NCBI GenBank assembly: GCA_043824495.1
Contig: JBDRSV010000024.1
Coordinates: 64,001 to 128,000 of the forward strand
Reading direction: 5' to 3'
Length of the DNA stretch: 64,000 nucleotides
DNA from: Candidatus Aenigmatarchaeota archaeon
GTDB lineage: Archaea; Aenigmatarchaeota; Aenigmatarchaeia; QMZP01
Below, piece by piece: positions 38,322 to 57,349 of the stretch. Each line of letters begins with the position of its first letter. The stretch's first letter is position 1. The position numbers were made by a program, and so were the translations under genes. A model generated the notes under the pieces. That model did not search any database, was not told the origin of the DNA, and saw only the letters and a list, made by a program, of their open reading frames with translations.

Positions 38322-40007
38322 ATGTATCCACTAGAAAAGTTCAGAGACGATATTAAATCAGTGATAGCTGAATACAAAAAGATAAAGAAAGATGAAGTTG
38401 TTTTAGCAAAACCTCCTCAAGGTATTCCAGCAGATTTAGCCTATCCATGTTTTGGCTTGGCTAAAAGAGAAAAAAGAGATCCAGTAGAATTTGCTCTCAC
38501 AACAGTGGAGAAAATAAAACCTAGAGGATTGATATCCAGAATAGAAGCTAATGGTCCATACATAAACTTCTATGCAGACTGGAGTAAGATGGGAAGCTTA
38601 GTTTTGAATGGAATAATAAAAGAAAAAAACGCTTATGGTAAAGGAAAGAAAAAGAATAAGATTCTAGTGGAACACACTTCAGCCAATCCAGATGGTCCTT
38701 TACATCTAGGTCATTTCAGAAACACTGTTATAGGAGACTCTTTAGCAAGAATATTACGATTCTATGGTCATGAAGTAAAAACAGATTTCTATGTAAATGA
38801 TACAGGAAGACAAATAACTCTAGCTTCTTGGATGTATTTACAAAATGAGCCTAAACCTAAAGGTAAGCTAGATTGGTGGGTTTATGACTTGTATTTCAAA
38901 TGTAACCAGAAATTGAAAACCAATCCAAGTATAGAAAATGAAATAACAGATATGATGCTTAAGTTTGAAAATGGAGATAAAGAACTAAGAAAAACACATG
39001 AGTTCATAGTTGATCAATGCTTGAAGGGGCATAAAGAAACTCTAGAAAGCATTGGAATTAAAATCGATAGATTCTCAAAGGAAAGCGAATTCCTATTCAC
39101 TGGAAAAGTTGATGATGTTTTGAAGAAGATACTCAAAACAAAGGAAGGAAAATCGTCTGGTAAAAGAGTATGGGTTGACTTGAAACAATTCAAAATAGAA
39201 AGAGAATTCACTCTAACAAGATCTGATGGAACAACAATTTATCCAGCAAGAGATTTGGCATATCATGCAGACAAGTTTGAAAGAGCAGATCAAAACATAA
39301 ATATTATAGGAACAGATCAGAAATTTTACTTCAAGCAGTTAACATCAACTCTTGGTTTACTATTTCCAAAGAAAACAGAGAATTATCATGTTTTGTTTTA
39401 TGAGTTTTTGCTGTTGCCAGAAGGAACAATGTCTACACGTTTAGGTAAATTTATTTCAGTTGATGAACTTGTAAAGAAATTTACAGAAACTGCAAGAAAA
39501 AGTATAGAAATAAAAAATCCAAAATACTCAACTAAATTCAAGGATGATATAGCTAAGATGGTTGGTATAGGTGCATTGAAGTATGCAATGATAAAAGTTT
39601 CGCCTGAGAAAACATATTCTTTCAGTGTGGATGACAGCCTAAATTTCGAAGGTAACACGGCACCTTATATTCAATATACTCATGCAAGAGCTTCTTCGAT
39701 ACTTCAGAAAGCTGGTAGTAGCAAACATGTAATCAAGTATATAGGAGAAGAAGAGAAACAAGTCATGAACAAGTTAATGGAATTCCCATATGCAGTGAAA
39801 AGAGCTTCTAAAGAATATAGACCACACATAATAGCTAACTATGCATATGATCTAGCAACGTCTTTCAATAACTTCTATCACTCGGTTCCTGTACTGAAAG
39901 CAGAAAAAGACTTAATAGGAACAAGACTAGCTATAGTAAAAGCTGCTCAGATAGTTTTGAAAACAAGTCTAGATCTTCTAGGTATAGAAGCACCTGATAA
40001 GATGTAG
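38322..40007 (+). CDS. argS: Arginine--tRNA ligase
   Basis: EHTSANPDGPLHLGHFRN (HIGH), MSTRLGK, FEGNTAPYIQYTHARASSIL, FNNFYH. Confidence 0.96.
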   Translation: MYPLEKFRDDIKSVIAEYKKIKKDEVVLAKPPQGIPADLAYPCFGLAKREKRDPVEFALTTVEKIKPRGLISRIEANGPYINFYADWSKMGSLVLNGIIKEKNAYGKGKKKNKILVEHTSANPDGPLHLGHFRNTVIGDSLARILRFYGHEVKTDFYVNDTGRQITLASWMYLQNEPKPKGKLDWWVYDLYFKCNQKLKTNPSIENEITDMMLKFENGDKELRKTHEFIVDQCLKGHKETLESIGIKIDRFSKESEFLFTGKVDDVLKKILKTKEGKSSGKRVWVDLKQFKIEREFTLTRSDGTTIYPARDLAYHADKFERADQNINIIGTDQKFYFKQLTSTLGLLFPKKTENYHVLFYEFLLLPEGTMSTRLGKFISVDELVKKFTETARKSIEIKNPKYSTKFKDDIAKMVGIGALKYAMIKVSPEKTYSFSVDDSLNFEGNTAPYIQYTHARASSILQKAGSSKHVIKYIGEEEKQVMNKLMEFPYAVKRASKEYRPHIIANYAYDLATSFNNFYHSVPVLKAEKDLIGTRLAIVKAAQIVLKTSLDLLGIEAPDKM

Positions 40008-40138
40008 AGTGATTAAACGGTAAGCATAATCAAGCTAATAGCACTTATTATAATTATTTATTTAGTAGTTTCTATTTTCCAATGTTACTGGCCTGCGAGT
40101 ATGCTTGAAGAAGTCTTATGTATTTATGGTCCACTATT

Positions 40139-40669
40139 CTAGACACTATTCCACAATCTCTGAATTAGTTGATTCATTGTAATCTTTTTCTGGAACAGTT
40201 CTTTTACATCATTCTTTTCAATCTGCACTCTTATCTGTGCCTTATTCTCTAAATCATTCTTATAAGATTCAACTCTTGCAACTAACTCTGGTTTTATCGC
40301 TTCATTTTCAGCTTCTACTGCAAATTTTCTTACAAAAGAAGCATCCATAGCTAAAAGATCATTTGCAATTCGTTCTCTGTAAAGAGACTTAACCATTTTT
40401 GTTATTGTAGCTGCTTTTTCTACAGTAGCTGAATCAGATGCTTTCTGTACCACAAAAGCTTCTACACTCCCTGCACTAACAGGAACAGCTTCTTCTATAC
40501 CTAAAGTATCTCTGTAAATACTCTCTTTCTGTGCAGATGTTGTAGCTTGATGTTTTATTACATCAGATGATCTTATGTCTACTAGAGCAAATCTTCCAGA
40601 AGCTTGTACAAGAGACATTGATAAAACTAACAAAATTCCAATTATCATCAAAGTTAATTTATAGTTCAT
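40139..40669 (-). CDS. Secreted hypothetical protein
   Basis: Signal peptide MNYKLTLMIIGILLVLSMSLVQA. Confidence 0.65.
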   Translation of the reverse strand: MNYKLTLMIIGILLVLSMSLVQASGRFALVDIRSSDVIKHQATTSAQKESIYRDTLGIEEAVPVSAGSVEAFVVQKASDSATVEKAATITKMVKSLYRERIANDLLAMDASFVRKFAVEAENEAIKPELVARVESYKNDLENKAQIRVQIEKNDVKELFQKKITMNQLIQRLWNSV

Positions 40670-41465
40670 TGAACCACTCCGTTAATTTTATTGAGTGTGC
40701 TGGATATGTTTTATCCACCACCAATATTTTTTTCTTCTCTAAATTCTTAAGCGCCGCTGCAAGACTAGATTTTGATATTCCCGATTTCTTTTCCAGTTCA
40801 CTTCTCCTGATAACTCCTTTATTTTCTACGACTATATTTACAATCTTCTTTTCATTCACTGATAATGTTTTTATGACCGATTCCTTTTTGGATAACCCTG
40901 GTTTCATTTTGTGTATGATTAATCCAATTCCAATGATTATGATAATACCAATAGCTGCAAACACGAATATAATTGGGTCGGTAGTCTTTGGTAGTTCCTT
41001 TTCAAATGAATATGATATTTCAATTGAGTTTATTCCTGCCCACCGAAGTTCTGTTATATCTCCAGTTTGTATGTAAGCTGAAGGATTTGATGAAATTATT
41101 TTTGTGTTGTCAGGCATCAAAATAACAATGTTGTTATTTTGTAATCCTGTATCCATATTGAATTTCCAGTTACCGTCTGTTTTTGATGTGAGTAGAGATG
41201 TTGTGTACAAAACAACAGCTTCTCTAGTTTCTCCAATTGACACTTCTATATAATCATCATGCACTAGATGCAACCCGCCTCTTACTAGTACCTCATCCAC
41301 ATCTGCTGGGATTGGTAGACGATAAATACCTGATCCTGTTATTGTTATGCTTACTAATGTGTTTCCATTATCTTCTATGATTATGTAATATTCGGTTGCT
41401 TCTTGCGCATACACTGTCGGTATCAGCGCGAGCAATCCTATCATGATCAGCAATACAACTTTCAT
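40659..41465 (-). CDS. Membrane-spanning protein with extracellular domain and C-terminal winged HTH
   Basis: Signal peptide, single TM, LSVNEKKIV...RSELEKKSGISKSSLAAALKNLEKK. Confidence 0.75.
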   Translation of the reverse strand: MKVVLLIMIGLLALIPTVYAQEATEYYIIIEDNGNTLVSITITGSGIYRLPIPADVDEVLVRGGLHLVHDDYIEVSIGETREAVVLYTTSLLTSKTDGNWKFNMDTGLQNNNIVILMPDNTKIISSNPSAYIQTGDITELRWAGINSIEISYSFEKELPKTTDPIIFVFAAIGIIIIIGIGLIIHKMKPGLSKKESVIKTLSVNEKKIVNIVVENKGVIRRSELEKKSGISKSSLAAALKNLEKKKILVVDKTYPAHSIKLTEWFNEL

Positions 41466-41530
41466 ACATGAAAGTTAATTTTTGCCTACTTAAATATGAC
41501 CTGGGGGAAGGGTTCCCCAGGTATATAATT

Positions 41531-42226
41531 TTACCAGTAAAGACCTGGTCCGAATGGGCCGATTGGTACTTCTATTGGTTTATTTGGTTTAGGTTGTGGT
41601 GTGTTCCACTCTTCAGGGAACCCTGGTCCTATACCACAGTCCCCGCATACTGCTATTCGTGGGAATACTTTGTATTCACCGTATGAATAGTCTCCGTAGA
41701 TATCCATGGCTTTCCAGTGATTTCCACTGTACCAACCAAAGAAGAGCTCATCTTCATAGAAGCCAGCGAATTTGTGGTTCTCATAAATTCCCCATACTTT
41801 GACTCCATTATTATCTTCACCAACAAAATATCCATTTGCGTATGTTCCCCATATAACATTTTCTCCGTCATGTGTCCATAGAATAAATCTATGTGGTCCT
41901 GTGTAGTAGGGCATTGTTTCTCCTGTTGTATCAGAAGATCCTGTACTTGGAGCTTCCATTTTGTCTACTGTAGCTTCGTAACTTGAAGGTATAGAAGCTG
42001 TAGCTTCTGTTTTAAACTCTTCTAGCTTATCTGCTACATTCGTTTTCACGATTTCTATATGCTCTGTGTTCACGCTGTTAGCGAATCCAAATCCCCTCTT
42101 CATATCATTCAGTTTCTGAATAAGAGGTTCATAATCCTCGCTTGAAACAGCTTGTGTTGAGGCAATTCCTAGTGCCAATACTGACACGAAAACAATTGCC
42201 ATAATATATTTGGTGTCCATTTTCAC
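41531..42226 (-). CDS. Secreted hypothetical protein with Gly/aromatic-rich repeats
   Basis: Signal peptide; WGTYANGYFVG/WGIYENHKFAG/FGWYSGNHW repeats. Confidence 0.65.
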   Translation of the reverse strand: MKMDTKYIMAIVFVSVLALGIASTQAVSSEDYEPLIQKLNDMKRGFGFANSVNTEHIEIVKTNVADKLEEFKTEATASIPSSYEATVDKMEAPSTGSSDTTGETMPYYTGPHRFILWTHDGENVIWGTYANGYFVGEDNNGVKVWGIYENHKFAGFYEDELFFGWYSGNHWKAMDIYGDYSYGEYKVFPRIAVCGDCGIGPGFPEEWNTPQPKPNKPIEVPIGPFGPGLYW

Positions 42227-42295
42227 ACCCCCTTGACATCACCAAGGAATGAACAGGATATAAAGACCATACCGAACAAAAGTGAACAATCATGT

Positions 42296-42353
42296 TATAT
42301 CCCTCTAATTAGACAATATAAAACAATCAGGTGCCGAGTGCACACCTAATTGT
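42296..42353 (-). repeat. Island-end composite signal, copy 2: motif 42296-42316 (1 mismatch) plus hairpin 42323-42353
   Basis: TATATCCCTCTAATTAGACAA on +; the hairpin has a G-T pair on the minus (sense) strand. Confidence 0.9.
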
Positions 42354-42370
42354 CCTTGCCAATCCTCTTC

Positions 42371-43477
42371 TCATCTCAGCTTCAAAAACGCTATATGAGG
42401 TGCAGGCAGCCACTTGACTAACGATTCAGTCCAAGAGAAAGACCATTTCAGCTTCTTCTTCATCTCGTGAACCTTCATACATTTCACCGAGACTAGATTC
42501 CAGTTCAGGATGCCGAAAGCTGTGCCCAAGAGACCACCGACAAGCATAACGAAGCCCTGTCCTACAAGATCCATTCCGGCGGAGGAAACGAGAAATTTGT
42601 AAGCGAGAAATCCGCCCAAGACTCCGTCAACTGCACACAACACTCTCTGGAAACAGTGAACCATCTTGATGATGTTCCAGATAAACTGACCGATAAATGT
42701 GAGGACCACCGAGATGCACACCAAGACAACGAAAATGACGGTCAGTGCAGTGAGAATTGGGTACCAGACAGAAAGTAGAAGCAAACTGAAGAGAATGTAT
42801 CCCATCGCGTTGAGATACCCGAGTTTTATTTCTCGGCGGTTCTTCTCCTCAAGGAAATACCTCCTTCTTAACACACCGATGTCGTATTTTTGGTCCGTGT
42901 GTCTGCTTATTCCGAGAGCCTCCCCAATACTCTTATAGTTGTACAAAACGTCTTCCCCGCTAGCGTCTTTCTTATCGACCATCATGAAAGGATAGAAGAA
43001 CCTTCCGCGATCACGACTTCCAACAAAAGCGAGGAAAGAAAGAACGCCGGAAAAGATCACAACACAGGCACCAGAGAGCGCCAACAGAAGAATGCTGCTG
43101 AGAGCGAGTTGAAGGATGTTCAGTGTTTCAGCATCTGCGAAAAGACCGGAAAATATGTGATGTGCTGGCCACAAGCCGAGCACAAGACTCGGAAAAAGGA
43201 ACGGGTGTGGCTTCGAGCATAACCAGTCCTTGGCTTTTCCGTAGTTGTCTCTGATATAAAACGGCCAAGTTCCGATATCATCCAACATCTCTCCGAGCAT
43301 CACTTGGATCGCTTTGGCCACCTCACGGAGGTCGTAACCAAAATAACCAGCTGCTCCGCCGGCCAGGAAAGCAGCAACCCACATGTACAACTTGTCCGGC
43401 ATCAGCCACATGGCAGTTGCACAGAACACGATGCCTCCAATGAAGCATCCGATTCCGATCTTCATCCAATCTTTCAT
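42371..43477 (-). CDS. Multi-pass membrane hypothetical protein
   Basis: 368 aa, many TM helices, SD gaaggag upstream. Confidence 0.75.
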   Translation of the reverse strand: MKDWMKIGIGCFIGGIVFCATAMWLMPDKLYMWVAAFLAGGAAGYFGYDLREVAKAIQVMLGEMLDDIGTWPFYIRDNYGKAKDWLCSKPHPFLFPSLVLGLWPAHHIFSGLFADAETLNILQLALSSILLLALSGACVVIFSGVLSFLAFVGSRDRGRFFYPFMMVDKKDASGEDVLYNYKSIGEALGISRHTDQKYDIGVLRRRYFLEEKNRREIKLGYLNAMGYILFSLLLLSVWYPILTALTVIFVVLVCISVVLTFIGQFIWNIIKMVHCFQRVLCAVDGVLGGFLAYKFLVSSAGMDLVGQGFVMLVGGLLGTAFGILNWNLVSVKCMKVHEMKKKLKWSFSWTESLVKWLPAPHIAFLKLR

Positions 43478-43544
43478 GGCGAAAATCTCCTTCTCGTTGT
43501 ATTTCTTTGTTTATAGTTATCGTCCTAGAATTAATTCAAAACAA

Positions 43545-44051
43545 TCATATCTGCAAAGGTTCAAGCAGATACATCAGACTTCGGTCTCGTAATTCTGTCC
43601 TCTTATAAGGAGGGAGATCTATGAGACAAAGACTGGAAATACTCACGTGCATGGTTTGATACTTGGTTTCGTCTGCTTGGTACATTCCCGTAAAGATTAT
43701 ATTATTCAGGACAAACCCGGAAACTACTGTCCAGATCCAGAATGCCATCCATCCATCGTACAAGAAGACGCTGGCAATCGCTGAAATGATTGCACCCACT
43801 GCGAGAACACCTACCTCAAAGAGAAGCATCGTAAAGATATCTCCCACGGGGTCGTTTTTGTCCTCTTCCCACCAATCCTCCATGACGAGTTCGTGGATAA
43901 TCATGTCAATGAGATTCTGCCTGTTCTGCATTTTCTCGTGGTAGGCTATGAAACGAGTTGGTTGACGAATGTTGTGCCAGATGATCAATCCAATTGGCAC
44001 CCAGATGACTGCTGTAGTGACAAGCAGCCAGAGAACTACTCTAGTTTCCAT
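43545..44051 (-). CDS. Membrane hypothetical protein
   Basis: Start trimmed to METRVV (44051) with SD ggaggg; three hydrophobic segments. Confidence 0.65.
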   Translation of the reverse strand: METRVVLWLLVTTAVIWVPIGLIIWHNIRQPTRFIAYHEKMQNRQNLIDMIIHELVMEDWWEEDKNDPVGDIFTMLLFEVGVLAVGAIISAIASVFLYDGWMAFWIWTVVSGFVLNNIIFTGMYQADETKYQTMHVSISSLCLIDLPPYKRTELRDRSLMYLLEPLQI

Positions 44052-44276
44052 GTCCCCTCCAGGATTGATTGTTAGAAAAAATACTAGTATAATCACTCTC
44101 GTTAATTGACATTTCTGTCTTTCGTTGTCGTAGAGTATTGATTCCTAAATTACAGATGATGACTTTACCTCGAACAAGAATCTTGTGCCAGGTGCTAAAA
44201 GTTGTCAGCGATGATAAATGTGGAACATGATGCATAGAATTTAACCTAAAATTTTATAAACCTATACAAAACCTTT

Positions 44277-44296
44277 TTATACCTCTTAATTGACAA
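44277..44296 (-). repeat. Degenerate copy of the island-end motif
   Basis: TTATACCTCTTAATTGACAA versus TTATATCCCTCTAATTAGACAA; both are followed by TATA; needs two gaps to align; no adjacent hairpin. Confidence 0.45.
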
Positions 44297-44304
44297 TATA
44301 TAGT

Positions 44305-44694
44305 ATGAAGAAAAAAGCAAAGAGGACCACAAAGAAAACAGTGAAAAAACCAGTCAAGAAAATAAAAATAGAAAAGAGAGTAACACCAAAACCAAAAAAA
44401 GAAGAGAAAATTAAATGTCCTTATTGTAAGAGTTCTAGAGTGGTTTGGAGAGGATATAGATACAACGAAAAGACTGACAAGCACTTAAGATTATGTAACA
44501 ACTGTAAGAGAAAGTTCACAAAAAGAGACGAGTTCTTCCGTATGAGATTCGGTGAAGAAGAGATAAAAAGAGCTGTGGAATTATACAAGAAAGGTTATTC
44601 TTCTGCAGAAGTAGTTCAGAACCTGAAAAGAAATCATGGAATAAAGGTTTCAAGATGGACTGTGATCTGTTGGCATAAGAGATACACTAAGTAA
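44305..44694 (+). CDS. InsA-like Zn-ribbon plus HTH protein (transposase N-terminal-like, no DDE domain)
   Basis: CPYCKSSRVVWRG...RLCNNCKRKF followed by HTH (SSAEVVQNL...VSRWTVICW); Lys-rich N-terminus; start trimmed to ATG 44305. Confidence 0.7.
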   Translation: MKKKAKRTTKKTVKKPVKKIKIEKRVTPKPKKEEKIKCPYCKSSRVVWRGYRYNEKTDKHLRLCNNCKRKFTKRDEFFRMRFGEEEIKRAVELYKKGYSSAEVVQNLKRNHGIKVSRWTVICWHKRYTK

Positions 44695-44714
44695 TTATTT
44701 TTTTTATCAGTTAT

Positions 44715-44778
44715 TATATCCCTTTAAATGGACAATGCAAAGGGAGAGGTGCAGTATTCCACATCTGCACACTCTCCC
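44715..44778 (-). repeat. Island-end composite signal, copy 3: motif 44715-44735 (2 mismatches) plus hairpin 44742-44778
   Basis: TATATCCCTTTAAATGGACAA; gggagaggtgcag...ctgcacactctccc. Confidence 0.88.
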
Positions 44779-47229
44779 ACCACATCACCTTTTCAGGCTT
44801 TGCAGATTTTTACTTCAGAAGCGTCATCTTTTTGCTTTCCGTCAGGCTGGCCGTTTGCAACCGATAGAAGTACATACCGGACGCGACGGCCTTACCGTAG
44901 CGGTCGGTTCCGTCCCAGCTAACCTGATGTGTTCCTTCGGGCTGGGACCCGTTGACGAGAGTGGCAACGTTGCGGCCGAGGATATCAAAGACCTCTAGCT
45001 TTACGTCTCCTCCCTGAGTCAACTGATAGGAAATCACGGTTCCGGCGTTGAAGGGGTTCGGGTAGTTCTGGTTCAAGCTGAATGATGTAGGAACGGCTCC
45101 TGTTGTCTTGTACGCGATGTTCAGCGTACCTAATGGAATCCACCCAGCCGGAACTGTCCGGCTGTTGTTGATCTCGTCAGCTATCGTTTTGGCCAACTCG
45201 TGATCGCCGAATGGATCGTCGATCAAGTTGTCGCAGTATGTTACCGCCTGTGACACAGTCGCGCCGTCATCGCTAATCACAGCGGTTTGTGCCAGTTTGC
45301 CGCTAGCGACATTGAGTAGCAAAGCCATGAGTTGCTGTCTGGCTCGATCAATCATGTCAACGCTGCCCTTGAGGTTCAGCAACGTCTTCGCGACTTCGAG
45401 CTTGTCTTCACAAAGATCCGACACGGGTGGATCGTACACGACGACCTCGTTCACTGCGTTCGAGTTGAAGTGGCCCGCGATGAGGTCGAGATAGCTACAC
45501 AGAGTTGAAGCATCGATTTGCGCGCGGCCATTCCCACCAGTAGCGACGCCGACGTTGTGTTTCCAGAAGCCGATTGTTCGTTGTTCTCCAGCGTCTGACG
45601 GGCATCCCAATTCAAAGTCGATTTGGGCTGTGCCTTCACAATCGAGATCGACGGACTGTTCGCTCGGAAATGCCGTATACCCGAGGGGGCCAACAAATGA
45701 TACCATGTAGCTGGCCTCACCCGGGAGGTTCTCGAAATCGTAGTAACCGGCTTCATCAGTCACAGCCGATTCTACAAGTACACCGGTGGCATCGAAGACA
45801 TCAATCGTGATACCAAGAACAGAGCAGTCAGCACTCAGTGTGCCCTCAATTGCGGCGAAGCATTCTTCCTCTCCACCTCCGCATGCACACGTTCCATCTT
45901 CCACCTCAATGGCGGTGATGGTGTTGTCGTAGGCGTCCTTTGACCAGACGACGGTCAACGGCGCGAAGTTGATGACGTCGCATTCGAGATCCTCATCCCG
46001 ACCACCGATCGTCGCGAAGTCACTGAGATACACGCCCGTTGTCTTGTCAATGCGAACGATGTTGCCCAGACCATCGCGCCCGATGTAAAGGGTGTTCCCC
46101 GTCCCAACAATAACACCACTTATTCGATCCAGTGTATTGCCGGCCGCGTCGGTCGGATACAACGTTCCCAGATAGGCTCCCGAGCCCGCATCGAAGTGGT
46201 CAATGCCCGTTGATACATCATCGGAAACCCAGACACTGTTATCCGTCGCATCAAAGCCAATGCCGTCGATGAAACAGAAGCCCGGTGTTACCACAGAAAA
46301 CTGGAAAGTGGCTACGCCGGTGGTGGGATCGATGAGATACACGTTCGCCGGACATTCGTTGTCACTGCCTCCCCAGATCATGTTGCGCGTATTGTCCCAT
46401 GCAATAGCGCCGATCGAAACTGGTGTGCCATCCGGTTTGAAAATGGAAACGAAGCCGAGATCGGTGCCGAATTTGTCTATCGAGTAGAGAGTTGGGTCGA
46501 AAGAGTTGGTGTAGAAAATCACACCATCACATCCAACTGCAACACCGATACCGACACCAGACGAGCTTGGAACAGGAACTGTGACGTTCGTGATGACATC
46601 ACCGGGAGCTGCCATTGACGTAGCGGTGATAGCGGTGAAGAGGCAGAACACAACAAGCGCAGTGAAAGCTGTGAGACGCTTCATGGATTTTTATTCCTTA
46701 GGTTGTGAGGGAAATATGACCCTCCGGGTTTGTTTTTCGATTAGTTTCTGATTGTTTGTCGTTTACCACGTTTCCAAGTTAAGGTCCGCGAATCGCTATT
46801 TTCATTGGCATCCTCTCTTTGGGTTAATGTTGTCCGCACAAATTGCGGGATTAAAAGAAGGAAAGACACAAAAGATAGAGTATGTCTTATGTAGACTGAG
46901 AGTAAAATCATTCGAAGAATAAAGCTAATACTATTAAAACAAACATGCATGTTTGATGTGTTTCTTTTCATGTTTTTTGTGTTAGCCAATGTACCGTTTC
47001 TATGGTTAATTGGATTGATTGAGTTGCAATCAATACAAATTTAAATGATGTTCGAATGAGTAGCATGATTTAAATTGTATACAAAAATTGACGTTGATTC
47101 ATCGTCGTTTTTTTGTGTTTTGGTATTTTTTTTGATTCTAGCTTGTCGCTTTTGTCAAGTCTTTAACTCAAGTATATAGCTTACAGGTATTTAAATGTTT
47201 TCTAACACATTTTTTTTAATTTTCTTTCT
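44736..47229 (-). mobile_element. Foreign island 3 (T9SS-tailed protein and its upstream region)
   Basis: GC-rich gene between motif copies 3 and 4. Confidence 0.65.
44810..46684 (-). CDS. Secreted protein: beta-propeller-like N-terminus, Ig/prealbumin-like domain, C-terminal FlgD-Ig / T9SS type A sorting-like domain
   Basis: Signal peptide; C-terminus FSLNQNYPNPFNAGTVISYQL...LEVFDILGRNVATLV...WDGTD...VASGMYFYRL...KKMTLLK. Confidence 0.85.
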   Translation of the reverse strand: MKRLTAFTALVVFCLFTAITATSMAAPGDVITNVTVPVPSSSGVGIGVAVGCDGVIFYTNSFDPTLYSIDKFGTDLGFVSIFKPDGTPVSIGAIAWDNTRNMIWGGSDNECPANVYLIDPTTGVATFQFSVVTPGFCFIDGIGFDATDNSVWVSDDVSTGIDHFDAGSGAYLGTLYPTDAAGNTLDRISGVIVGTGNTLYIGRDGLGNIVRIDKTTGVYLSDFATIGGRDEDLECDVINFAPLTVVWSKDAYDNTITAIEVEDGTCACGGGEEECFAAIEGTLSADCSVLGITIDVFDATGVLVESAVTDEAGYYDFENLPGEASYMVSFVGPLGYTAFPSEQSVDLDCEGTAQIDFELGCPSDAGEQRTIGFWKHNVGVATGGNGRAQIDASTLCSYLDLIAGHFNSNAVNEVVVYDPPVSDLCEDKLEVAKTLLNLKGSVDMIDRARQQLMALLLNVASGKLAQTAVISDDGATVSQAVTYCDNLIDDPFGDHELAKTIADEINNSRTVPAGWIPLGTLNIAYKTTGAVPTSFSLNQNYPNPFNAGTVISYQLTQGGDVKLEVFDILGRNVATLVNGSQPEGTHQVSWDGTDRYGKAVASGMYFYRLQTASLTESKKMTLLK

Positions 47230-47321
47230 TTTATCCCTTTAAATAGACATATAAAAAGGCAAACGGGCGAAGATTTGGAGCCAAACTCTTCTTGATGTCT
47301 CACCTCCGCCCGTTAAATGCC
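47230..47321 (-). repeat. Island-end composite signal, copy 4: motif 47230-47250 (3 mismatches) plus hairpin 47258-47321
   Basis: TTTATCCCTTTAAATAGACAT; ggcaaacgggcg...cgcccgttaaatgcc; followed on the minus strand by TTTTTAT. Confidence 0.85.
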
Positions 47322-50300
47322 GTTGTCCGGCCTATCAATTTACCCGCCGGTTAGGTGAGCACATGTGCTCGTGTCCCAGAGGCGCATGTTTTCATGCCCT
47401 CCTTTGCCGGGTTCTTACGCGAACGTGCTGCTTGACCGAGATAATGTAGCTGCCAGATTCCCCACAACCTTGTTATTGGTGGAACCGCGACAGCGGTCGG
47501 TCCAGTCCGTATGCATCGTAGCCTCACTTGGTGAAGGACTGCGAATCAAGAGACGGGGATTCAGAAGAATCCCCGTCTCACGAGTTGACGGTTGGTACGA
47601 GATATATCAAAGGAAGTCTTTATGCCATTGGGTGCATTCCGAAACCTTTAGCCTCGTCCGTCTCCGAGGGATCCTATCAAAGGTTTCATAAAGGAAATTT
47701 CATGGACCTCGTTACGATAGGATCGGAGTGGCGTAAAGCCACGGCCAGAACCTCGAGGTCCCCCAGGATAAGATCACCGTTTGAATATGAGTCAGCGGTG
47801 AACGTAAGGGTGCTGGCGATTCTTCTTCGCATTCAAACCCTCCAGGGAACACTTCGTAATTTGTGTTGTCAGCGGCTGTTTACGAATCGGCGGTGATCGT
47901 TTCCACCACGGTACATGTCGGCGTGGTGACAAACGATGAAGAAGCGACTTCAAAACGCGCGCGGCCATTGCTCGGCGGCGGCGAATGAGCCCAGGCATTG
48001 ACGGCGGTCGCGGCGGTATTCATCCAGGAAGCGACCACTGGTGACCCGCGAAGGGTCGGTAATCGGTTCATAGAGCAAGCTCCATTTCTTCCGATAGGAA
48101 AATTCCAATCCACTTTACAAACTCTCGCCTAAACAGAAAGTATTGTCACATAACTTTCCGTCGCAAAAGAGAATGTGAAGAGGAAACAATTTCGTACACC
48201 TCGTCAAGAGATCGTCTCCATTTTCACCCTACATGGGCTAGGCGAGAGGATAGACCAGTTGCTGATAGAGATGTAGAGGGAACCGTTTTCATCCGAAGAT
48301 CTCTCCCGTCCCTCAGGGAGTAAGTTGCTCGTCCACCAGGTTCCCATACCAAGGGAGCTGGCAACTCTGCCATTCTCTCTATCCGACTCTCTGTTGTCAT
48401 CGCCACTACGGCAACAACTCTTAGCCTATCCGGCGTAGGATTATGAGAGTGTAGAGCGAATTCCTCGTTCCATGTTTGTTCTGTATCGCTGCCTGTTATG
48501 ATATCCAATCCTGAAAACGGGATTGGGTCAGCGGTATAAACAATACAGGAACCATATATGAGGTAGCAGAGTGTCATGATTCCCAGCATGACAACTCCTT
48601 ACAAGGGCACATGGTTATATGGTAAATGCTCTCTCCGTCAACAAATCGTGCCCTCTAAGACATGTTTAGGAGAGAAAGGCGACAACTCATGAAGTGTTCT
48701 TCAGGTGGACCCGTCATCACTGTTATTGCGTTGACGGCCTTCTCCTTGACCCGGACTTAGACGTGTGGCTTTCGGTGTTTTCGCGGCGCGTTTCTGCTGT
48801 TTTGGACTACGCTTCTTGTTGCTCGGAAGCCCGTCTCGGGCACCACCGTGACACGTCATGAAAGACCTCGTTTGTGAGGAGTTCAGTTCAAGCTTGTGCT
48901 GGAACTGTTTGGAACGAGGAATTGTTACTCTTTACGGCGAGCGATTGTGTGTCATCGTAACTCCTTGACAATGGTTTCCACAAGCTCCAAAATAAAAAAG
49001 AGCTGTTGTTTTCAAATTCAGTTGGGAATCTCCTAGCCCGCCCCCAGAACTGACTAGAGGAGATCCCCAACTTTTGTACAGCGCACCCCGTGCATTGTTT
49101 TCAGGGTGGAGGGGCCCGGCGGTCAACTGAGCCCCTCACTGGACGAATCGGTCACAGATAACATGTTACGCATTACCGACTCGAAATCTATGCCACGGCA
49201 GTAGATGGAAGTGGTCGCATCTACCGCCGGGCTTCACGACGTTGTGCATTTTGTCGCCTTCAGCCTTACACAACGCCGTTATTTCCCCACCCACAGGGAA
49301 TTTAATATCGCGGGGCCTCACTCAGGAGACCCCGCTTCCGTTGGGTTTACTACCGAATTGTTCGGTAGCGTTCTTCCACGACAGACATACGCACATGCGC
49401 ACGTCTTCATTTCTTTGAGGACCTACTCATCTCCGATTTGAGTAGGTCCTCGGCTCCCCACAACCCCCCGATCAGCACCGGGAATTTTTTTGAGGGGAAA
49501 TCTGAGCAGATATCTCAGACTCCCCTCCCGTCAGGTCTACCGACCAGCACTTCCGGTTGGACGCCGGAAATTCTTTATTAGAAGGGGTTTCCCCTCTCCA
49601 AGAAACCCCTTCCTCTTCGGCGTAGCGCGTCTCACGCGCTTTAGTGCATCGATCCCCACCGATCAGGTAAAACCCTTGGATGGTTCTCTCCCCGAACCCC
49701 CACTGAAATATTTTGGAACCCCTCATAGATCCCCGTAATCTCCGAGAGGTTCCGACAGCAGCACCATACAAATGGGACTACCGTGACAATCAAAAATACC
49801 GGAATCCACCGCGTCAGAAGAGGATTCCGGTATTCTACATCGCTGGTTGTGTTGAGAGCTTACCCCTTACTGGTCTTAACGAGTATGTTACGTCGGACTT
49901 CCTTTCACCAAATATACGGGTCACTACAGAATACCCGATCGATCCGCTTTGTTGTCTTAATCTCACCAGCGGATAGTGACGCGGTTACAGCCAGCGATTT
50001 CGCCTTTATACAACAGGCGTCTCCAAACCAAAATGGAAATTGGAGTTGTTGCTTCCACACTTCCGGATTTCCCCCTCCGGTAAACTCTAAGGTACTGATA
50101 GGTGACCGCTCGTGTTTCTTGTGTTCGCAATTGCCGATTGCATCAAGCTCTTCGTAGATCTAGATCTGGAAGTAATTAGCAAACGATCACAATAAACAGA
50201 CAACTGGGAGAAGTCCATTTCTACCAGTACCTGGATTTTCTAACCCTCGGGAGGTGTGTACAAGCCTAAGCAGAGTTTGTCCTGTTGAATTGGCCCCGAG

Positions 50301-50835
50301 GGTAAGTGGCCTTCCGGAAGAGAATTGGTGAGGTCCTGTAACAGAACTCTATCTCATTCCGGGGTAAAGCTCAAGGCACAGCCAGAAGGAGACGTATTAC
50401 CTTGAGAAGTTGGTCTCCCGAGTGAAGAAATTCGAGATGTCCCATCGATGAAGGACATCTCTTCTCCACTCGGGCTCATTCGTCAGCCTGGAAGGAGAAG
50501 TGCAAGAGTTTTCGCGCAATTACTCTCTCTCCTCCCGGGAAATTTATGACCTCCTGGTCCGAAACTTGTGCCGCGGTAAACCAGAAGGCGTAACTGCTAG
50601 GCTATGTGACGGCCACAGCAGTAGGGATCGAATCCAATACACGAAAGACAGCTAAGACTAACTCTGTCTCGTGTGGTTTACGAGTAAAATTCAGAAATCG
50701 ATAGTCTTCGGCCTCTTCGAGGGAAACTGCTTAAGCGCTTAATTGCAGCGCGTTATGTTTCCTGGTAAGTGACCTGTTCTCTAGGATGTACCGAAGGCTA
50801 ACTTAGTTAGTCTCGGGAAATTCGCGTGTGATTGG
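47251..50835 (-). ncRNA. Candidate very large structured non-coding RNA region (island 4); strand and number of RNAs uncertain
   Basis: About 3.6 kb with no ORF longer than about 125 aa; many perfect 10-14 bp stems including a long-range 14-bp pair (48459-48472 with 48910-48923); no known RNA family recognised. Confidence 0.5.
48224..48589 (-). CDS. Possible small membrane-anchored protein inside island 4
   Basis: SD aaggag 6 nt before ATG and a hydrophobic N-terminus, but it overlaps predicted stems. Confidence 0.3.
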   Translation of the reverse strand: MLGIMTLCYLIYGSCIVYTADPIPFSGLDIITGSDTEQTWNEEFALHSHNPTPDRLRVVAVVAMTTESRIERMAELPAPLVWEPGGRATYSLRDGRDLRMKTVPSTSLSATGLSSRLAHVG

Positions 50836-50861
50836 TAGAAATGAAACATGAAATGTCCTTA

Positions 50862-50869
50862 TATATAAA
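50862..50869 (-). promoter_or_regulatory. Candidate archaeal TATA box (TTTATATA) pointing into island 4
   Basis: Lies about 25-30 nt before the AT-to-GC transition at about 50835; weak because the region is AT-rich and near-palindromic. Confidence 0.35.
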
Positions 50870-51004
50870 TGTAATTTAATTACTTAAATAGGTTGATGGA
50901 TAGCTTTAAAAAGGTACTATTAAAATTATTTTTTTGTGAAGGGATCGATATACCAAGTGCTTCCAAAAATAAAGAGTAGAAAAAAATAAGAGTGAAAAAA
51001 GCAA

Positions 51005-53047
51005 TTAACCAATGAATTCAACCTTTTCAAAACTGCCGTTTTCTTCAAATTTGTCTAATGTTGATACGAAAATTATTACTTTTTTCTTGTCTTCTTTACA
51101 GATTCTAGCTGCTTGTTGTATTACCATGTTCTTGATTCTGTCTGAAGCACATATGAAATGATTGCTTTGTTTCAAGTCCTGATAAATTAATTCTCTATCA
51201 TCTGTGTCTTCAACCATTATAGTTAATTCTTTTCCATCGTTCTGTAAATATATTCTGTTACCTTCTTGTTCACTCTTCCATCCGACTTCATTAAAGGTCT
51301 GCATGATACCTGTTAAGTTCAATTCTTTTTTCTGTGTTGAGTTACCAAATTTATTAGTGAAAACTTTCTCTCCTATATTTGTAAGAAAGTAATAACATAA
51401 TCTATTCTTCTTAACTTTAGCATCAGCTGAATCAACTAATCCGTTATAAGTTAAGTTCTCAACCTTTTTCTTGAAAGTTGCTCCTGACATTTTTACATTT
51501 GTGTATATCTGAGATGTGTAAGCAGCACTACCATTACCAATGGTTTTCATCATAGCCCACTCTTGTTCTCCTAAATCCTCAATTGGAAGAGAGTTTATGA
51601 ATTCTTCTTCCTTTACTGGAGGAGGTGAGTAGCTATCTTCTTTAGCTATTCTGTCTTTCATGTGCTCTCTGATATCATCATCTACAATAGAGTTCTTAAC
51701 CAGTTTAGCCTTGTCGAATTTTACAAGGAATGGTTCTGGGAAATTCATAGAGTGTCTCAAAAGCATGAAACCGTGACCTACTGGCAGTCTTCTTAGATAC
51801 TTACCTTCTTCTCTAGAATCAAGACCAAGCATGTTTGAAGCGTCTTGAATATCTGAAGTATGTTTTGTATCCAAACCTAGATTCATGTATATATGAGTAG
51901 AAGTATTACCAATTGCTGGATATGAAACTAAAGATGGATGCTGATCTATGTATATCATTCCTAATCCTAATTCTCTAATTTCTCTAAATATTAATTCTAC
52001 AACGGTTTCTGATCCTAATTTGGCAGATTTTTCTCTGTTAAGAACATGATGAGCTTCTTCCATCACTATACATCCTATGACTTCTTCTTTTCCGCCTTCT
52101 ACGAGTAACCAATCTCTTATCCACTGTAGAATTATTTCTATGATAAAGCTCTTATCATTAACATCAAGAGCATCTAATTCTAGAATTGTTACCTTTCCTT
52201 TCTTGAAGAAATCAGATGGTTTTATACCTTCTACACAGTCGAATATATGACCTGTGTCTTTGAAGCATAATGACTCTAATGGTCTTTCAGCTGTTGCTAA
52301 CCAGTTTCTTTCTCTTGTTGGCAGCTTACCTTCTGCATATTCTGCTAAGTAATCTTTAAGGTCAAACAGTGTTGGATTTTTCTTTTCCTTGAAAACTCCA
52401 TCTAAAGCTTTCAAGATTACGTGTCTTCCACCACCGAGTAACCAGTAAGAATGATCGAATATTGAAGAGAACTCTTTCATCCACTGTGTTTGACTAATTC
52501 CTTTAGGACCTTTCAGTGGATTGAATTTGAAAGGAGCTACGCCTCTTCCGATTGTGTAAATATCTATTTTGTCTTTAATTTTAGTTGATAGTAAATCTTT
52601 ATAATTTCTCTTAGAGAAATCAAATATCAAAACAGGAATATCCTTTTCTGCTAATTCTTCAATTAAGTTATATGAAATATTTGTTTTACCATAACCAGAT
52701 GAACCAAATATTCCTATATGTGTAAGTAAGTTTTTCTCTTCTAGCATGATTGGATATAAACCCTTTCTTCCGTATAAAACATCACCTAATCTAATTGTTC
52801 CTTTAGCTGCTGCTTCTTGGCTAGGAGGTTCCATTAGTACTGTATCTCTTAGATCTTCATCAGCAGAAACTGCGGCTTTTATAACATCAAGTAGTTCGAA
52901 GATTCTTTGTCTTACATCTTCGTTTCCAACTAAGTAAGCTTTACTTAATCTCAAAGCTTTGTCTTTACCCAAGATTGGAGTAAGCTTCTTAATTTCATCT
53001 GCAATTAGTTTTTCTTGAATATTAATCATTTGTACCACCCAAATCAT
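51005..53047 (-). CDS. HerA/VirB4/TraD-like ATPase with C-terminal winged-HTH-like region
   Basis: Walker A GSSGYGKT, Walker B IVMEEAH, REIRELGLGMIYIDQHPS. Confidence 0.8.
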   Translation of the reverse strand: MIWVVQMINIQEKLIADEIKKLTPILGKDKALRLSKAYLVGNEDVRQRIFELLDVIKAAVSADEDLRDTVLMEPPSQEAAAKGTIRLGDVLYGRKGLYPIMLEEKNLLTHIGIFGSSGYGKTNISYNLIEELAEKDIPVLIFDFSKRNYKDLLSTKIKDKIDIYTIGRGVAPFKFNPLKGPKGISQTQWMKEFSSIFDHSYWLLGGGRHVILKALDGVFKEKKNPTLFDLKDYLAEYAEGKLPTRERNWLATAERPLESLCFKDTGHIFDCVEGIKPSDFFKKGKVTILELDALDVNDKSFIIEIILQWIRDWLLVEGGKEEVIGCIVMEEAHHVLNREKSAKLGSETVVELIFREIRELGLGMIYIDQHPSLVSYPAIGNTSTHIYMNLGLDTKHTSDIQDASNMLGLDSREEGKYLRRLPVGHGFMLLRHSMNFPEPFLVKFDKAKLVKNSIVDDDIREHMKDRIAKEDSYSPPPVKEEEFINSLPIEDLGEQEWAMMKTIGNGSAAYTSQIYTNVKMSGATFKKKVENLTYNGLVDSADAKVKKNRLCYYFLTNIGEKVFTNKFGNSTQKKELNLTGIMQTFNEVGWKSEQEGNRIYLQNDGKELTIMVEDTDDRELIYQDLKQSNHFICASDRIKNMVIQQAARICKEDKKKVIIFVSTLDKFEENGSFEKVEFIG

Positions 53048-53570
53048 TAAAGATCTTTAAGATCTTATTTTCTGTTTGTAGTTGTTCCAGGAGCTCTCTT
53101 AGCTCTGTTTTTAATTCTAATCCATCTCTCCAAAAAAGAATATTTTCTTGTCTTTTTTCTTTTCTGAGAATAGAAACATCAAGTTTGAAATTTCTCTTTT
53201 CATCGATGTCTGTGATATGATTCATCATATCGTCTTTTTCTTCGATGTCTTCTTCAATTTCTTTTAAGAATGTTTTGTGGAGAACTTCTCTTTCTTTCAT
53301 AGTGTTTTCAATTTCACTAACTCTTATTTGCAAGAATTCTACTTTATCGAATAAGCTTCCAATAACTAGAGGATCATCTCTTTTTAGAGCAGTGAGTTTA
53401 CTTTCTTCAAATCTTGGCATTGATCTTTTCTTAATAATTTGAACTTCTCTAACTTCGGGTTCATCTAGATCAATCTCATCATGTCTAATTAAAGACTCAC
53501 GTCTTCTCTTTTTTGTAATGTCTTCATACTCGTCAAGAGTTTTATAATAGGGTTCCATTAATCTGTCCAT
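53022..53570 (-). CDS. Coiled-coil hypothetical protein
   Basis: Glu/Lys/Leu heptad-rich; overlaps the ATPase start, so probably co-transcribed. Confidence 0.7.
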   Translation of the reverse strand: MDRLMEPYYKTLDEYEDITKKRRRESLIRHDEIDLDEPEVREVQIIKKRSMPRFEESKLTALKRDDPLVIGSLFDKVEFLQIRVSEIENTMKEREVLHKTFLKEIEEDIEEKDDMMNHITDIDEKRNFKLDVSILRKEKRQENILFWRDGLELKTELRELLEQLQTENKILKIFNDLGGTND

Positions 53571-54432
53571 AATAATTACCTCGAGTGACCATTTGTCACT
53601 ATCTGATAGTTAAAATATGTATAAAGGGTTTATAAAGCTTTCGGTTAGCTTGCAGTGTGCTGTTTTTGAGCGTAAAAATCGTGTACGAAAGACAATTTTC
53701 TTGGGTTTCCATGACTTTTGTGCCAACGAAAGACATATTCTGTCTTTAGTAAGAGAGTTAATAAAGATTTCTGTCTCGCGCCTTATAAAGGATCCGAATT
53801 GGATATTTTATATAGTAATTAATTACTATTGTAGAGATCTTTATTTACTTAAGTCTTTACATAAATAATTCTCAAATACTTTTTGTCTTTGCTAAAGTTT
53901 AATGCAGATTTTCCTCGAAACTTTTGTGGAAATTCTTGAAATCAAATGTCTTCTAGTTTTGCTAGAGCTTTTGAAGACATGGAAACTCTCATAAAACCCC
54001 AACCGAAAAGTATTTAAACCCTTTGACTATAATTTCACTATAGATTAGTGACAACAAATTAAGAAATGTCTGAGTTATGTGTGGTGTCAAATCCTACATA
54101 ACTATCTTTACAATCTACGCAACTTTGAATAAAAAGAATTTCGGGTTAAACTCGCAATTCTAAACTCAGAGAAATTGAGTGCACAGGAATTTAGGCGCGG
54201 CCTAAAATCCCCATAAGAAATCCAAAAAAATGACACGCTTTGTGTCAAAAAATGTGATTTGAGGGGGTTTGATTTCCTTAGCTCTGAGTATCTACTTTTC
54301 GAAAACCACGAAGACTCGCGTAACAATTCTAAGCAATAAATATAGTGAAATTCCAGACTTCTGTAGACTTTCGCTGTCTGACATAGAAATTAACAAGTTG
54401 ACAATAAACGGAAACTTCTGGGAGGGATTGTC

Positions 54433-54795
54433 ATGAGAAATATCATGAGCTGTGTTTTCCTGCTGCTCACATTATTCCTGGTGAGTTGTGCGAAAAGTGG
54501 TCCGGAGCTGGGGAGTGATATCCGGATCAGTGGAACAATCGTCGACATGAGCGAAGGAGGTAGTAGGGATTTCCTGATCCAGTCCGGAGGAAAACTCTAC
54601 CATTTCGGTACTCGACTGCAATTTAAATGGAGTAAACTTCGTGCGGGACATTACGTCACCGTGGATGGGAAGTTTGGGGGACCGTGCGAGGAAGCCTCAA
54701 TGTTCAGACGCTACATGTACGACGACGAAGGGAACTTCATCAAGTCCCTCGAGGTCTATGACATCATCCATGTTTCGAACGTGGAGAGGCAGTGA
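54433..54795 (+). CDS. Putative lipoprotein
   Basis: LLLTLFLVS-C lipobox; SD ggaggga. Confidence 0.65.
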   Translation: MRNIMSCVFLLLTLFLVSCAKSGPELGSDIRISGTIVDMSEGGSRDFLIQSGGKLYHFGTRLQFKWSKLRAGHYVTVDGKFGGPCEEASMFRRYMYDDEGNFIKSLEVYDIIHVSNVERQ

Positions 54796-54924
54796 TCCCA
54801 CTGAGTTCATCCAATTCATCGGGTGGACCCAGATGAGATTATTGTCTAAAGGCTAAATCAGCAGGCCTTGAATTGTTGGTAGGGATCATTGGAAGATTCC
54901 CAAAAACATGGCAAGGAGGGCAAC

Positions 54925-55077
54925 ATGTCGCAGGGAACCAAAAACACCAAAGACACAGGAACAAGAGCGTTTCTGGTTATCGACGGAACTACAGGAGACC
55001 TCATTCCTGTGAAAGCATCGTCTGGACGAAAAGCTGAGCAAATCGCCGGCAGCGTAACCAGACAATCCCGCAAATAA
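54925..55077 (+). CDS. Small hypothetical protein (50 aa)
   Basis: SD aaggagg before ATG 54925 (MSQGTKNTKD...). Confidence 0.45.
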   Translation: MSQGTKNTKDTGTRAFLVIDGTTGDLIPVKASSGRKAEQIAGSVTRQSRK

Positions 55078-55295
55078 AATTACCCACTGTGAATTCCCCA
55101 GGAGTATCATCCGCCCGGAAGATACTCTGTTCTCCCCCATACTACCATAGGCCACACGGAGCTCATCAGGTTTTCACTTGGTGGGCTCCAGTGAGATCTT
55201 TGGTGGTTAACGTTCCATAACCGTTTCATTCACAACCTTTTGCCGACCTTGTCTGCATTGCAGCTCAAGGAAGTGTGTAAAGGAAGGAGAGTGTC

Positions 55296-55997: not shown

Positions 55998-56050
55998 TCA
56001 ACGGCTTGGAAACCAAGTCAAATCAACGACAATGAAAGTTGAGGTGTAAT

Positions 56051-56371: not shown

Positions 56372-56385
56372 TACTGAAGTTCACC

Positions 56386-56433
56386 GGGGATCCCGATCAA
56401 TCTGGTTGGGATCCCCTCAACCTGACAATAAAC
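56386..56433 (+). repeat. Intergenic repeat family A, copy 1 (GGGGATCC hairpin plus TGACAAT)
   Basis: 41/48 nt identical to 57297-57344. Confidence 0.85.
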
Positions 56434-56442
56434 TGTTGTTAA

Positions 56443-57288: not shown

Positions 57289-57296
57289 TTGTTACA

Positions 57297-57344
57297 GGGG
57301 ATCCTGACCAATTCGGTTGGGATCCCTTCAACTTGACAATTAAC
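57297..57344 (+). repeat. Intergenic repeat family A, copy 2
   Basis: See copy 1. Confidence 0.85.
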
Positions 57345-57349
57345 GTAAC

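Follow-up and report, generated by a model that had tools for sequence, protein, structure and literature searches.

What kind of system strings together genes that have nothing in common and closes each of them with the same short site? The question is raised by a 64,000-nt stretch of contig JBDRSV010000024.1 (positions 64,001 to 128,000) from a Candidatus Aenigmatarchaeota archaeon, hereafter the window, in which four copies of one motif delimit successive units between 42295 and ~50900; coordinates refer to the window unless another contig is named. The original prediction likened this locus to an integron array or to a clustered regularly interspaced short palindromic repeat (CRISPR) locus with kilobase spacers, fed by repeated insertion at one hotspot. 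The explanation favored here, to which about an even chance is given as a whole, is a lineage-specific cassette platform: the array is made of cassettes A, B, and C, three of the about 19 foreign-DNA cassettes that form one family across the genome; it lies around ZnR, the gene for a Zn-ribbon and helix-turn-helix (HTH) protein that would derive from the Zn-ribbon/HTH head of an IS6-type transposase and now stand alone, with no catalytic domain; and the motif, here called the box, is the predicted binding site of ZnR.

A repeat search of the window returns a single motif family, with four same-strand 28-nt copies at 42295, 44275, 44714, and 47229; the last three are 79, 82, and 75% identical to the first, and consecutive copies are 1980, 439, and 2515 nt apart. 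These same-orientation copies and the unrelated units between them are as originally described: two multi-transmembrane membrane genes, the Zn-ribbon/HTH gene, a 624-aa gene with a type IX secretion system (T9SS) tail, and a 3.3-kb block lacking open reading frames (ORFs). A degenerate 21-nt pattern built from the four copies has six matches in the window against 0.21 expected, a number reached in none of 100 shuffles; the two extra copies, at 30066 and 63344, are both on the minus strand. The window has a GC content of ~33-36%, with stretches of ~50% GC at 26.0-30.06, 42.3-50.9, and 54.4-63.3 kb, and every good motif copy stands exactly at a step between low and high GC, its GACAATAyAAA end directed towards the GC-rich DNA.

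The same arrangement recurs across the source genome, that of a DPANN archaeon (1.01 Mb in 29 contigs, 80% complete, ~35% GC), in which archaeal ribosomal genes are seen. A fuzzy genome census finds ~20 true copies, most of them with a GC fraction of 0.32-0.37 in the 1 kb upstream and 0.43-0.56 in the 1 kb downstream, and two-state GC segmentation of the genome places a box at one edge of each of the 19 islands that reach 0.8 kb and 0.48 GC; the islands range from 0.8 to 9 kb at ~50% GC. Scored genome-wide with a position weight matrix (PWM), the copies form two classes, 19 at 24.7 bits or more and a remainder at 16 bits or less, with the 44275 copy at 17.9 bits. The 19 strong boxes are distributed one per island, the cassettes are spread over ~17 places, a second head-to-tail cassette tandem is found on contig C5, and ~5% of the 1-Mb genome lies in uniform cassettes. 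The same box is present in about a dozen independent metagenome-assembled genomes (MAGs) and one metagenome contig; an exact match to it was sought in 2.9 million viral contigs and not found. The modular view of the units, as cassettes with unrelated foreign cargo and a common closing site, is upheld. The left-to-right rise in mismatches among the hairpin-associated copies (1, 2, 3), from which the newest unit had tentatively been placed at the left, involves three copies only, at positions that are polymorphic among the copies of the genome, and carries no weight.

Cassettes share an anatomy in which the constant parts surround a variable interior. The long cargo ORFs of every island have their 3' ends pointing to the box. 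Between the last stop codon and the box is a hairpin that differs in sequence in every copy, and conserved sequence is found on one side of the hairpin only; the stem starts no more than 2 nt from the box end in 17 of 19 copies, as compared with 24.7% of GC-matched positions within the islands (P ~5e-9), and the hairpins at 42295, 44714, and 47229 are all within 5 nt of the box. At the far end of seven cassettes, a TATA-like box precedes TCATGYTCCACA by ~27-33 nt and is followed by a leader of ~150-180 nt, which is recognized in these cassettes by nhmmer (E 6e-46 to 4e-14) and is 80-88% identical ahead of unrelated cargo. Helix P1 of this leader covaries (GCUGAC/GUCAGC, CCAGC/GCUGG, and GCCAAU/AUUGGC), with double changes at 5 of 6 pairs among the seven copies. 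It is the only helix supported by RNAalifold on a MAFFT alignment of the leaders; helices P2 and P3 are tentative, seen by eye in single folds, and comparison of the leader with Rfam gave chance-level matches only. Cargo genes are preceded by strong GGAGG-type Shine-Dalgarno sites, and with the exception of two paralogue pairs the cargos are unrelated from one cassette to the next. Cassettes can be multi-gene, with six or more genes and up to 9 kb, and have TATA promoters of their own.

Cassette A is read on the minus strand and extends from 42295 to ~44262. Box A (42295-42322, plus strand), a 27-28 nt end mark of the strong PWM class, has its GACAATATAAA end facing the cargo, and hairpin A (42323-42353) starts at the end of the box, just after the stop codon of the last cargo gene. 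The cargo consists of gene 1 (43545-44051, minus strand; 168 aa from its ATG), with 3 hydrophobic segments, and gene 2 (42371-43477, minus strand; 368 aa), with ~6-8 hydrophobic segments. Neither matches a known family; a paralogue of gene 1, 46% identical, is the cargo of another cassette on contig C11. The structured 5' leader (44072-44250, minus strand) begins with the start box TCATGTTCCACA and is a clear member of the leader family (nhmmer E 1e-43), its P1 helix covarying among the copies. A TATA-like promoter box (44247-44262, minus strand), as read from the sequence, is placed just upstream of the start box.

Cassette B extends from 44714 to ~47228 and carries a cargo with a recognizable past. 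Box B (44714-44741, plus strand) begins 20 nt past the ZnR stop codon and is followed by hairpin B (44742-44778), which has a 13-bp GC-rich stem (-24.6 kcal/mol in a 64-nt window). The 624-aa cargo (44810-46684, minus strand) encodes a secreted protein with a signal peptide, Ig domains resembling SdrD_B and CarboxypepD_reg, and a T9SS type A sorting domain (TIGR04183, 51.5 bits; PF18962, 30.4 bits). The AT-rich 5' region (46685-47228, minus strand) provides a Shine-Dalgarno site, an untranslated leader, and a promoter; it contains a weak start-box-like word, TCATGCTACTCA, at 47057-47068, and falls outside the nhmmer leader family. A homologue search of 185,579 species genomes confirmed 591 loci related to this cargo. 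Since the best 80 of these are all bacterial and of the Fibrobacteres-Chlorobi-Bacteroidetes (FCB) group (Zixibacteria, Ignavibacteria, Bacteroidota, Balneolaceae, Marinimicrobia, Cloacimonadota, and KSB1), cargo B is bacterial in origin. Its secretion signal is useless within an archaeon.

Cassette C extends from 47229 to ~50900 and differs from its neighbors in having no protein-coding cargo. Box C (47229-47256, plus strand) and hairpin C (47262-47314) are followed by 3.3 kb of non-coding DNA at 50% GC (47316-50640, minus strand) with strong secondary structure specific to the minus strand. At the far end is a promoter with a divergent leader (50630-50900, minus strand), partly read from the letters themselves: a TATA-like stretch, the start-box-like word TTCATGTTTCA, and a P3-like hairpin; this region abuts the herA stop codon at 51005. 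No ORF of more than 142 aa is found in cargo C in any frame or under simple recoding, and no frame opens when TGA, TAG, or TAA is reassigned, which disposes of an alternative genetic code. The period-3 signal is 1.2, as compared with 6-29 for neighboring genes, and 10 ORF fragments have no Pfam match at E <= 1; with a GC content that is not ameliorated and hairpins that are near-perfect, these results also dispose of a pseudogene.

Folding of the minus strand of cargo C gives a mean z of -2.45 and a minimum of -10.2 (coding controls, -0.3 to -0.8). About a dozen near-perfect GC hairpins of 10-16 bp, separated by A-rich linkers, run through approximately 49020-49850 (minus strand), among them AAAAAAAUUCCC, AAUAAAGAAUUUCC, and GAUAUUAAAUUCCC, and the center of the cargo is the sole 1-kb window genome-wide with at least three perfect hairpins of at least 10 bp. 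For 48900-49900 the minus strand folds at -400 kcal/mol with 47 G-U pairs and the plus strand at -316 kcal/mol with 19, a modeled strand bias that fits an RNA made in the cassette sense. Searches of 200 phylum genomes, of plasmids, and of phages found no relative of cassette C; Rfam gave no match at gathering score in 40000-56000 and none at E <= 1 in 47150-51050, and the window has no tRNAs. Cargo C is thus a candidate large structured RNA without known relative.

The remaining unit of the array is not a cassette. ZnR (44305-44694, plus strand; 129 aa, Zn-ribbon and HTH) has host-like GC content, is single-copy, and has no DDE domain. It matches the NF033587 model transpos_IS6 (E 5e-5, profile positions 2-52, over the HTH) and also an IS1/IS1595 zinc domain model, and is 39% identical (BLASTP E 2e-18) to the first 96 residues of a 287-aa transposase with a PF13610 (DDE_Tnp_IS240) domain. 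On this similarity, ZnR and the DNA-binding N-terminus of IS6-family transposases are homologues. Stand-alone ZnR genes of ~100 aa, 45-64% identical, are found among 200 phylum genomes in the family of the source genome and in a second family; weaker matches are the N-termini of IS6-type transposases of 290-460 aa. The 36-residue lysine-rich extension at the N-terminus of ZnR (44305-44412) is a peculiarity of this copy in the comparison with a 77%-identical metagenome homologue, which starts at the ribbon.

The box recurs around ZnR in a way that connects the two. The copy at 44275 (44275-44302, plus strand; 17.9 bits, between the strong class and noise) had been taken for a degenerate one; it is instead a conserved variant, with TACC for TCCC, that forms the ZnR promoter, its TATA-like 5' part lying ~26-30 nt before the ZnR ATG in the geometry of a leaderless archaeal mRNA. 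A metagenome search with ZnR returned one close contig only, that of the 77%-identical homologue, and there the promoter box recurs, with two further boxes around ZnR. In the family, ~7 of 10 loci have a forward box or box-like site in the ZnR promoter, and at 7 of 11 a forward box is found no more than 60 nt past the ZnR stop, in one case overlapping the stop codon. Of the 23 family genomes sampled, all 9 that have a strong short ZnR show the box pattern, as do 2 of the 14 others (Fisher P 7e-5, a value that is overstated, kinship being ignored). The pattern is also present in three ZnR-bearing genomes of the second family. These distributions demonstrate, at the level of sequence, a linkage of ZnR and box across relatives.

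The site itself varies in content from genome to genome. ZnR has a fixed synteny, in which it follows argS (TIGR00456) and precedes convergent herA with a 182-aa gene. The gap between ZnR and herA is 6.3 kb here and 0.27 kb in G178, 0.7 in G202, 1.0 in G137, 1.6 in G197, 3.9 in G190, 8.6 in G131, and 12.9 in G107; argS and ZnR are adjacent in G137 and G197 and 4.3 kb apart here. The six inserted proteins of this locus have no tblastn match in 20 related loci. In the same-genus genome G203, a different cassette start (TATA, start-box-like word, GGAGG, and small ORFs) stands beyond the herA stop and has no nucleotide similarity to cassette C; this genome has 10 boxes and none of cassettes A, B, and C. 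The argS-ZnR-herA site is a hotspot of rapid turnover, with different content in every relative examined, in comparisons that are between species, not strains. Comparison for gain and loss, originally proposed for strains or samples, shows content that differs between species. The idea of insertion at one hotspot survives in part: the site is variable, but cassettes of the same kind occur at ~16 other sites, which rules out a single array with one point of entry.

Two further features of the locus concern its host genes. Between argS and cassette A, at 40139-42226 (minus strand), there are three low-GC genes with signal-peptide-like N-termini, one of them with a weak winged-helix match. They were not found at this site in the 20 related loci examined, argS being retained in three, and the argS-ZnR gap therefore appears to have taken up host-like DNA as well. 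The herA homologue of four relatives (loci L015/L019, in G197 and G194, and genomes G214 and G215) is a frame of 726-785 aa with a two-piece match and a gap near residue 470, which suggests an insertion in, or a fused form of, the HerA-like ATPase.

One cassette outside the window is informative about how cassettes arrive. On contig C24, to which the window also belongs, a gene for a 407-aa tyrosine recombinase ends 51 nt before a box, and a 322-bp direct duplicate of 93% identity (C24:47029-47350 and 49252-49573, equivalent to L139:2530-2851 and 4753-5074) brackets one cassette. The duplicate is the 3' end of the recombinase gene, its second copy following the cassette behind the box. The copies differ at 21 positions, 16 of which are third codon positions, with 13 synonymous and 5 non-synonymous codons; the differences being mostly synonymous, the partial copy would have evolved within a working gene of another lineage. 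The cassette was probably imported along with its flank from the DNA of a related archaeon, homologous recombination being the simplest route.

On the favored explanation, cassettes A-C would have piled up on both sides of the conserved host gene ZnR, between argS and herA, each with the order (in minus-strand reading) of archaeal TATA promoter, untranslated leader (of the shared structured type in at least 7 of 19), GC-rich imported cargo, cargo-specific hairpin, and 27-nt box. ZnR would bind the box variant in its own promoter, giving autoregulation, and at the 3' box of each cassette may act as an operator, an insulator, or an end-recognition factor. Cassettes would travel as DNA between related archaea and be placed by recombination beside existing boxes or flanks, with the catalyst encoded away from the cassettes. 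Landing next to an existing box or flank would account for the direct orientation, the head-to-tail tandems (here a direct-repeat tandem of box B-cargo-leader and box C-cargo-leader), and the hotspot at ZnR. The cassettes are a lineage-specific variant of mobile gene-cassette systems, and the family looks like an undescribed way of holding foreign genes.

Several observations weigh against this explanation. Binding of the box by ZnR is a prediction. At the class level, no box was found at the stringency used in the ZnR-bearing genomes G018 and G040. The shared leader is detectable in just 7 of 19 cassettes and not in B. Because PWM scores fall into two classes, islands can be said to have one box and no relic of a second, and a PWM scan of the leader side of the cassettes found no such relic. 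Flanking matches, at 6.7 nt against 6.4 in shuffled sequence, are not in excess, which leaves no sign of target duplication; with a single box and no target duplication, no known transposition or site-specific scheme is directly supported. The grounds for an IS6 origin of the box itself, plausible as this is, are the homology of ZnR and the box in its promoter. The flanks of 7 full-length IS6 genes of the phylum hold nothing resembling a box, scoring no more than 2.7 bits (real boxes, at least 24.7), and no terminal repeats match the box, although these copies are only 26-39% identical to ZnR and closer IS copies are outside the sample. Finally, all compared genomes are MAGs, and that of the window is itself 80% complete. 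A motif-like promoter at the leader side was also considered as an inverted partner of the box and is not convincing.

The most serious alternative, itself on the unlikely side, gives the box no role in mobility: it would be a regulatory signal only (promoter, terminator, or operator), put in place or selected for by this lineage at the 3' end of horizontally acquired operons, and the islands would enter by ordinary gene transfer and homologous recombination. The duplicated host flank of the cassette on C24 fits this account of entry, as does the failure to find a recombinase, a DDE transposase, a target duplication, or a second end. A regulatory function can also be read from the box itself, in that one variant has leaderless-promoter geometry for ZnR and the hairpin followed by TTTrTAT reads as a terminator in the cargo sense. 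It leaves unexplained, however, the same 27 nt in 19 unrelated cargos, exactly abutting the hairpin of each, the head-to-tail tandems in which all boxes are direct, and the shared leader of 80-88% identity before unrelated cargo. A 27-nt site arising de novo 19 times is implausible, and some copying mechanism is therefore still needed.

A more ambitious reading, which must be called doubtful, keeps ZnR and makes the cassettes a dedicated platform for cross-domain capture. The domesticated ZnR head would mark a docking box; incoming nucleic acid would be cut back to the extent of one transcript, from ribosome-binding site to terminator hairpin, and inserted between the box and an archaeal promoter and leader already in place, perhaps by way of RNA or of a single-stranded form. 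Such a platform would hold non-coding RNAs too, cassette C being a captured or home-grown structured RNA of 3.3 kb and of a type that Rfam lacks.

The integron comparison of the original prediction fares less well, and an integron-like system is improbable here. It would make hairpin and box together an attC-type folded site for a tyrosine recombinase, with the array at this locus and solo cassettes elsewhere. The likeness is real at the level of organization: modular, unrelated, and often foreign genes in one orientation, one site-like element at the 3' end of each cassette, and a hairpin-forming closing site in which a variable hairpin stands beside a conserved core; both systems are platforms for cross-domain genes. 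Reports of archaeal integrons extend to DPANN (Ghaly et al., 2022, PMC9668308), a point in favor, and the genome has 7 tyrosine recombinase matches, one of them the gene that ends 51 nt before a box. Yet a search of 160-nt box and hairpin regions on both strands for the attC core pair (R'' RYYYAAC with R' GTTRRRY) found it in 0 of 19 sites, and conserved sequence is one-sided relative to the hairpin, which looks like the cargo's own terminator. Where an integron gathers mostly promoterless single ORFs in an array at attI, the present cassettes are multi-gene, up to 9 kb, self-promoted with archaeal promoters and leaders, and dispersed over ~17 separate places. There is no IntI-type gene at the array and no recombinase gene in 38-55 kb of the window. 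The family of the box-neighboring recombinase is present in 101 of 201 genomes of the phylum and was not found (E <= 1e-10) in the box-bearing G061, G131, and G197. Tyrosine recombinase is rejected as the candidate enzyme, as it does not co-occur with the boxes. The likeness to CRISPR is weaker still, with spacings of 1980, 439, and 2515 nt, copies 75-82% identical, and "spacers" that are whole genes with promoters.

Slightly less probable again is a decayed pseudo-compound structure of the IS26 type, in which each box is the solitary terminal repeat of an IS6 copy since lost, and the neighboring DNA came in with that copy as a translocatable unit. ZnR is a homologue of the IS6 N-terminus, the Zn-ribbon/HTH head of long transposases of the IS6 type, and has a box in front of it, as would an insertion sequence (IS) copy that had been truncated; the box in its promoter is at the position of an IS left end, and boxes in direct repeat around unrelated cargo recall IS26 arrays formed by targeted insertion beside an existing copy (Harmer and Hall, 2019, PMC6807381; Varani et al., 2021, PMC7986276). 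The units here, in contrast, are each marked by one short site and not by whole IS copies, with no inverted partner and no DDE catalytic domain: PF13610 is not found in the genome of the window (80% complete; controls matched) and occurs in only 4 of 47 family genomes. IS6-family terminal repeats typically start with GG (Harmer and Hall, 2019, PMC6807381), and the box does not; extant IS6 copies of the phylum lack box-like ends, and 8-bp duplications were not found. An active IS6/IS26 unit is rejected for want of a DDE domain, of a second end, and of target duplications. ZnR is stand-alone across two families and hence no recent wreck, and decay that left exactly 27 nt nineteen times is unlikely.

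RNA-mediated capture is a still fainter prospect. Bacterial transcripts ending at intrinsic terminators would be copied by target-primed reverse transcription, with priming at the A-rich 3' end that a nick in the box exposes, and the copies fused to a promoter and leader already present; cargo would then be transcript-shaped because transcripts were what was reverse-transcribed. Cargo does begin at a Shine-Dalgarno site and end in a terminator-type hairpin, with TTT after the hairpin at every junction, and one reverse transcriptase is encoded in the genome. Cassette C, with RNA-like structure specific to the cassette-sense strand, would be a natural cargo of such a process. Against this, cargos of 9 kb with many genes and internal non-coding stretches are long for it, the cassette with the 322-bp host-gene duplicate indicates DNA recombination, and no poly-A or template-switch scars are seen. 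The cargo being shaped like a transcript, an RNA or single-strand intermediate is kept as a minority reading. That bacterial fragments were wrongly assembled or binned into an archaeal MAG, as sharp GC steps and bacterial-type cargo genes might suggest, is hardly credible given junctions with a conserved but non-identical 27-nt site in a consistent architecture, islands embedded in contigs with host genes on both sides, and the box in about a dozen independent MAGs and a metagenome contig.

For the favored cassette platform, other known elements supply partial parallels. Truncated DNA-binding derivatives of transposases, IS1 InsA among them, bind the ends of elements and act as repressors. ZnR resembles InsA in being a small Zn-ribbon and HTH protein without catalytic domain whose gene is preceded by a predicted binding site; it differs in being a single-copy, syntenic host gene in two families, outside any IS, with presumed sites that flank foreign blocks. 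Helitrons and IS91-type elements have a 3' hairpin beside a short conserved terminus and capture genes by end bypass. The cassettes share with them one-ended conservation, a GC-rich hairpin abutting the terminus, and heterogeneous captured cargo, whereas the hairpin here is different in every copy. A search of the genome for Y2 HUH proteins had no match, and the same search matched none of its control genomes. A single Y1 transposase gene of the IS200/IS605 type is present outside the window (contig C23:4162-4518) and was not found in the box-bearing G203, G061, G089, G131, G137, G178, and G197; as the Y1 gene does not track the boxes and the hairpins all differ, membership of IS200/IS605 or REP/RAYT systems is rejected.

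DPANN archaea have tiny genomes and yet many bacterial genes, and to our knowledge how such genes enter and are expressed across the domain boundary in DPANN is largely unknown. The cassettes offer a concrete, testable handle on cross-domain gene capture and expression, with one protein, one 27-nt site, and defined junctions; if the explanation is true, ZnR would add to the cases in which a host has recruited the DNA-binding domain of a transposase. New here are the argS-ZnR-herA hotspot, the box-ZnR-box arrangement in relatives, the structured non-coding cassette C, and the 322-bp flank duplication, together with the negative tests for IS6 ends, attC cores, tyrosine recombinase, Y1 HUH, and viral carriage.

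Two further cassettes are found in the window, closed by the minus-strand boxes. The first (26055-30086, plus strand) has its leader at 26055-26216 and its hairpin and box at 30066-30086 (minus strand); its cargo comprises M20 and M32 peptidase genes and one ORF, and it is located just upstream of the gene for ribosomal protein S17. The second (54000-63364, plus strand) is a multi-gene cassette of 9 kb in which an ORF with an FHA domain comes last, followed by a hairpin and the box at 63344-63364 (minus strand). Spacers within this cassette contain box-like words (GGATCCCYTCAACYTGACAAT) at 56407-56428 and 57318-57339 (plus strand; PWM 9.3 and 16.0 bits), which are opposite in orientation to the terminal box, contain TTGACA, and may be donor promoter-like elements or internal weak boxes. 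The same cassette has perfect 10-bp hairpins headed by CCCGGG at 59003-59030 and 59635-59667, each followed by GTTCCAAA, within a non-coding structured stretch (58714-59813, mean z -1.9); the pair looks like a donor-derived repeated palindromic element.

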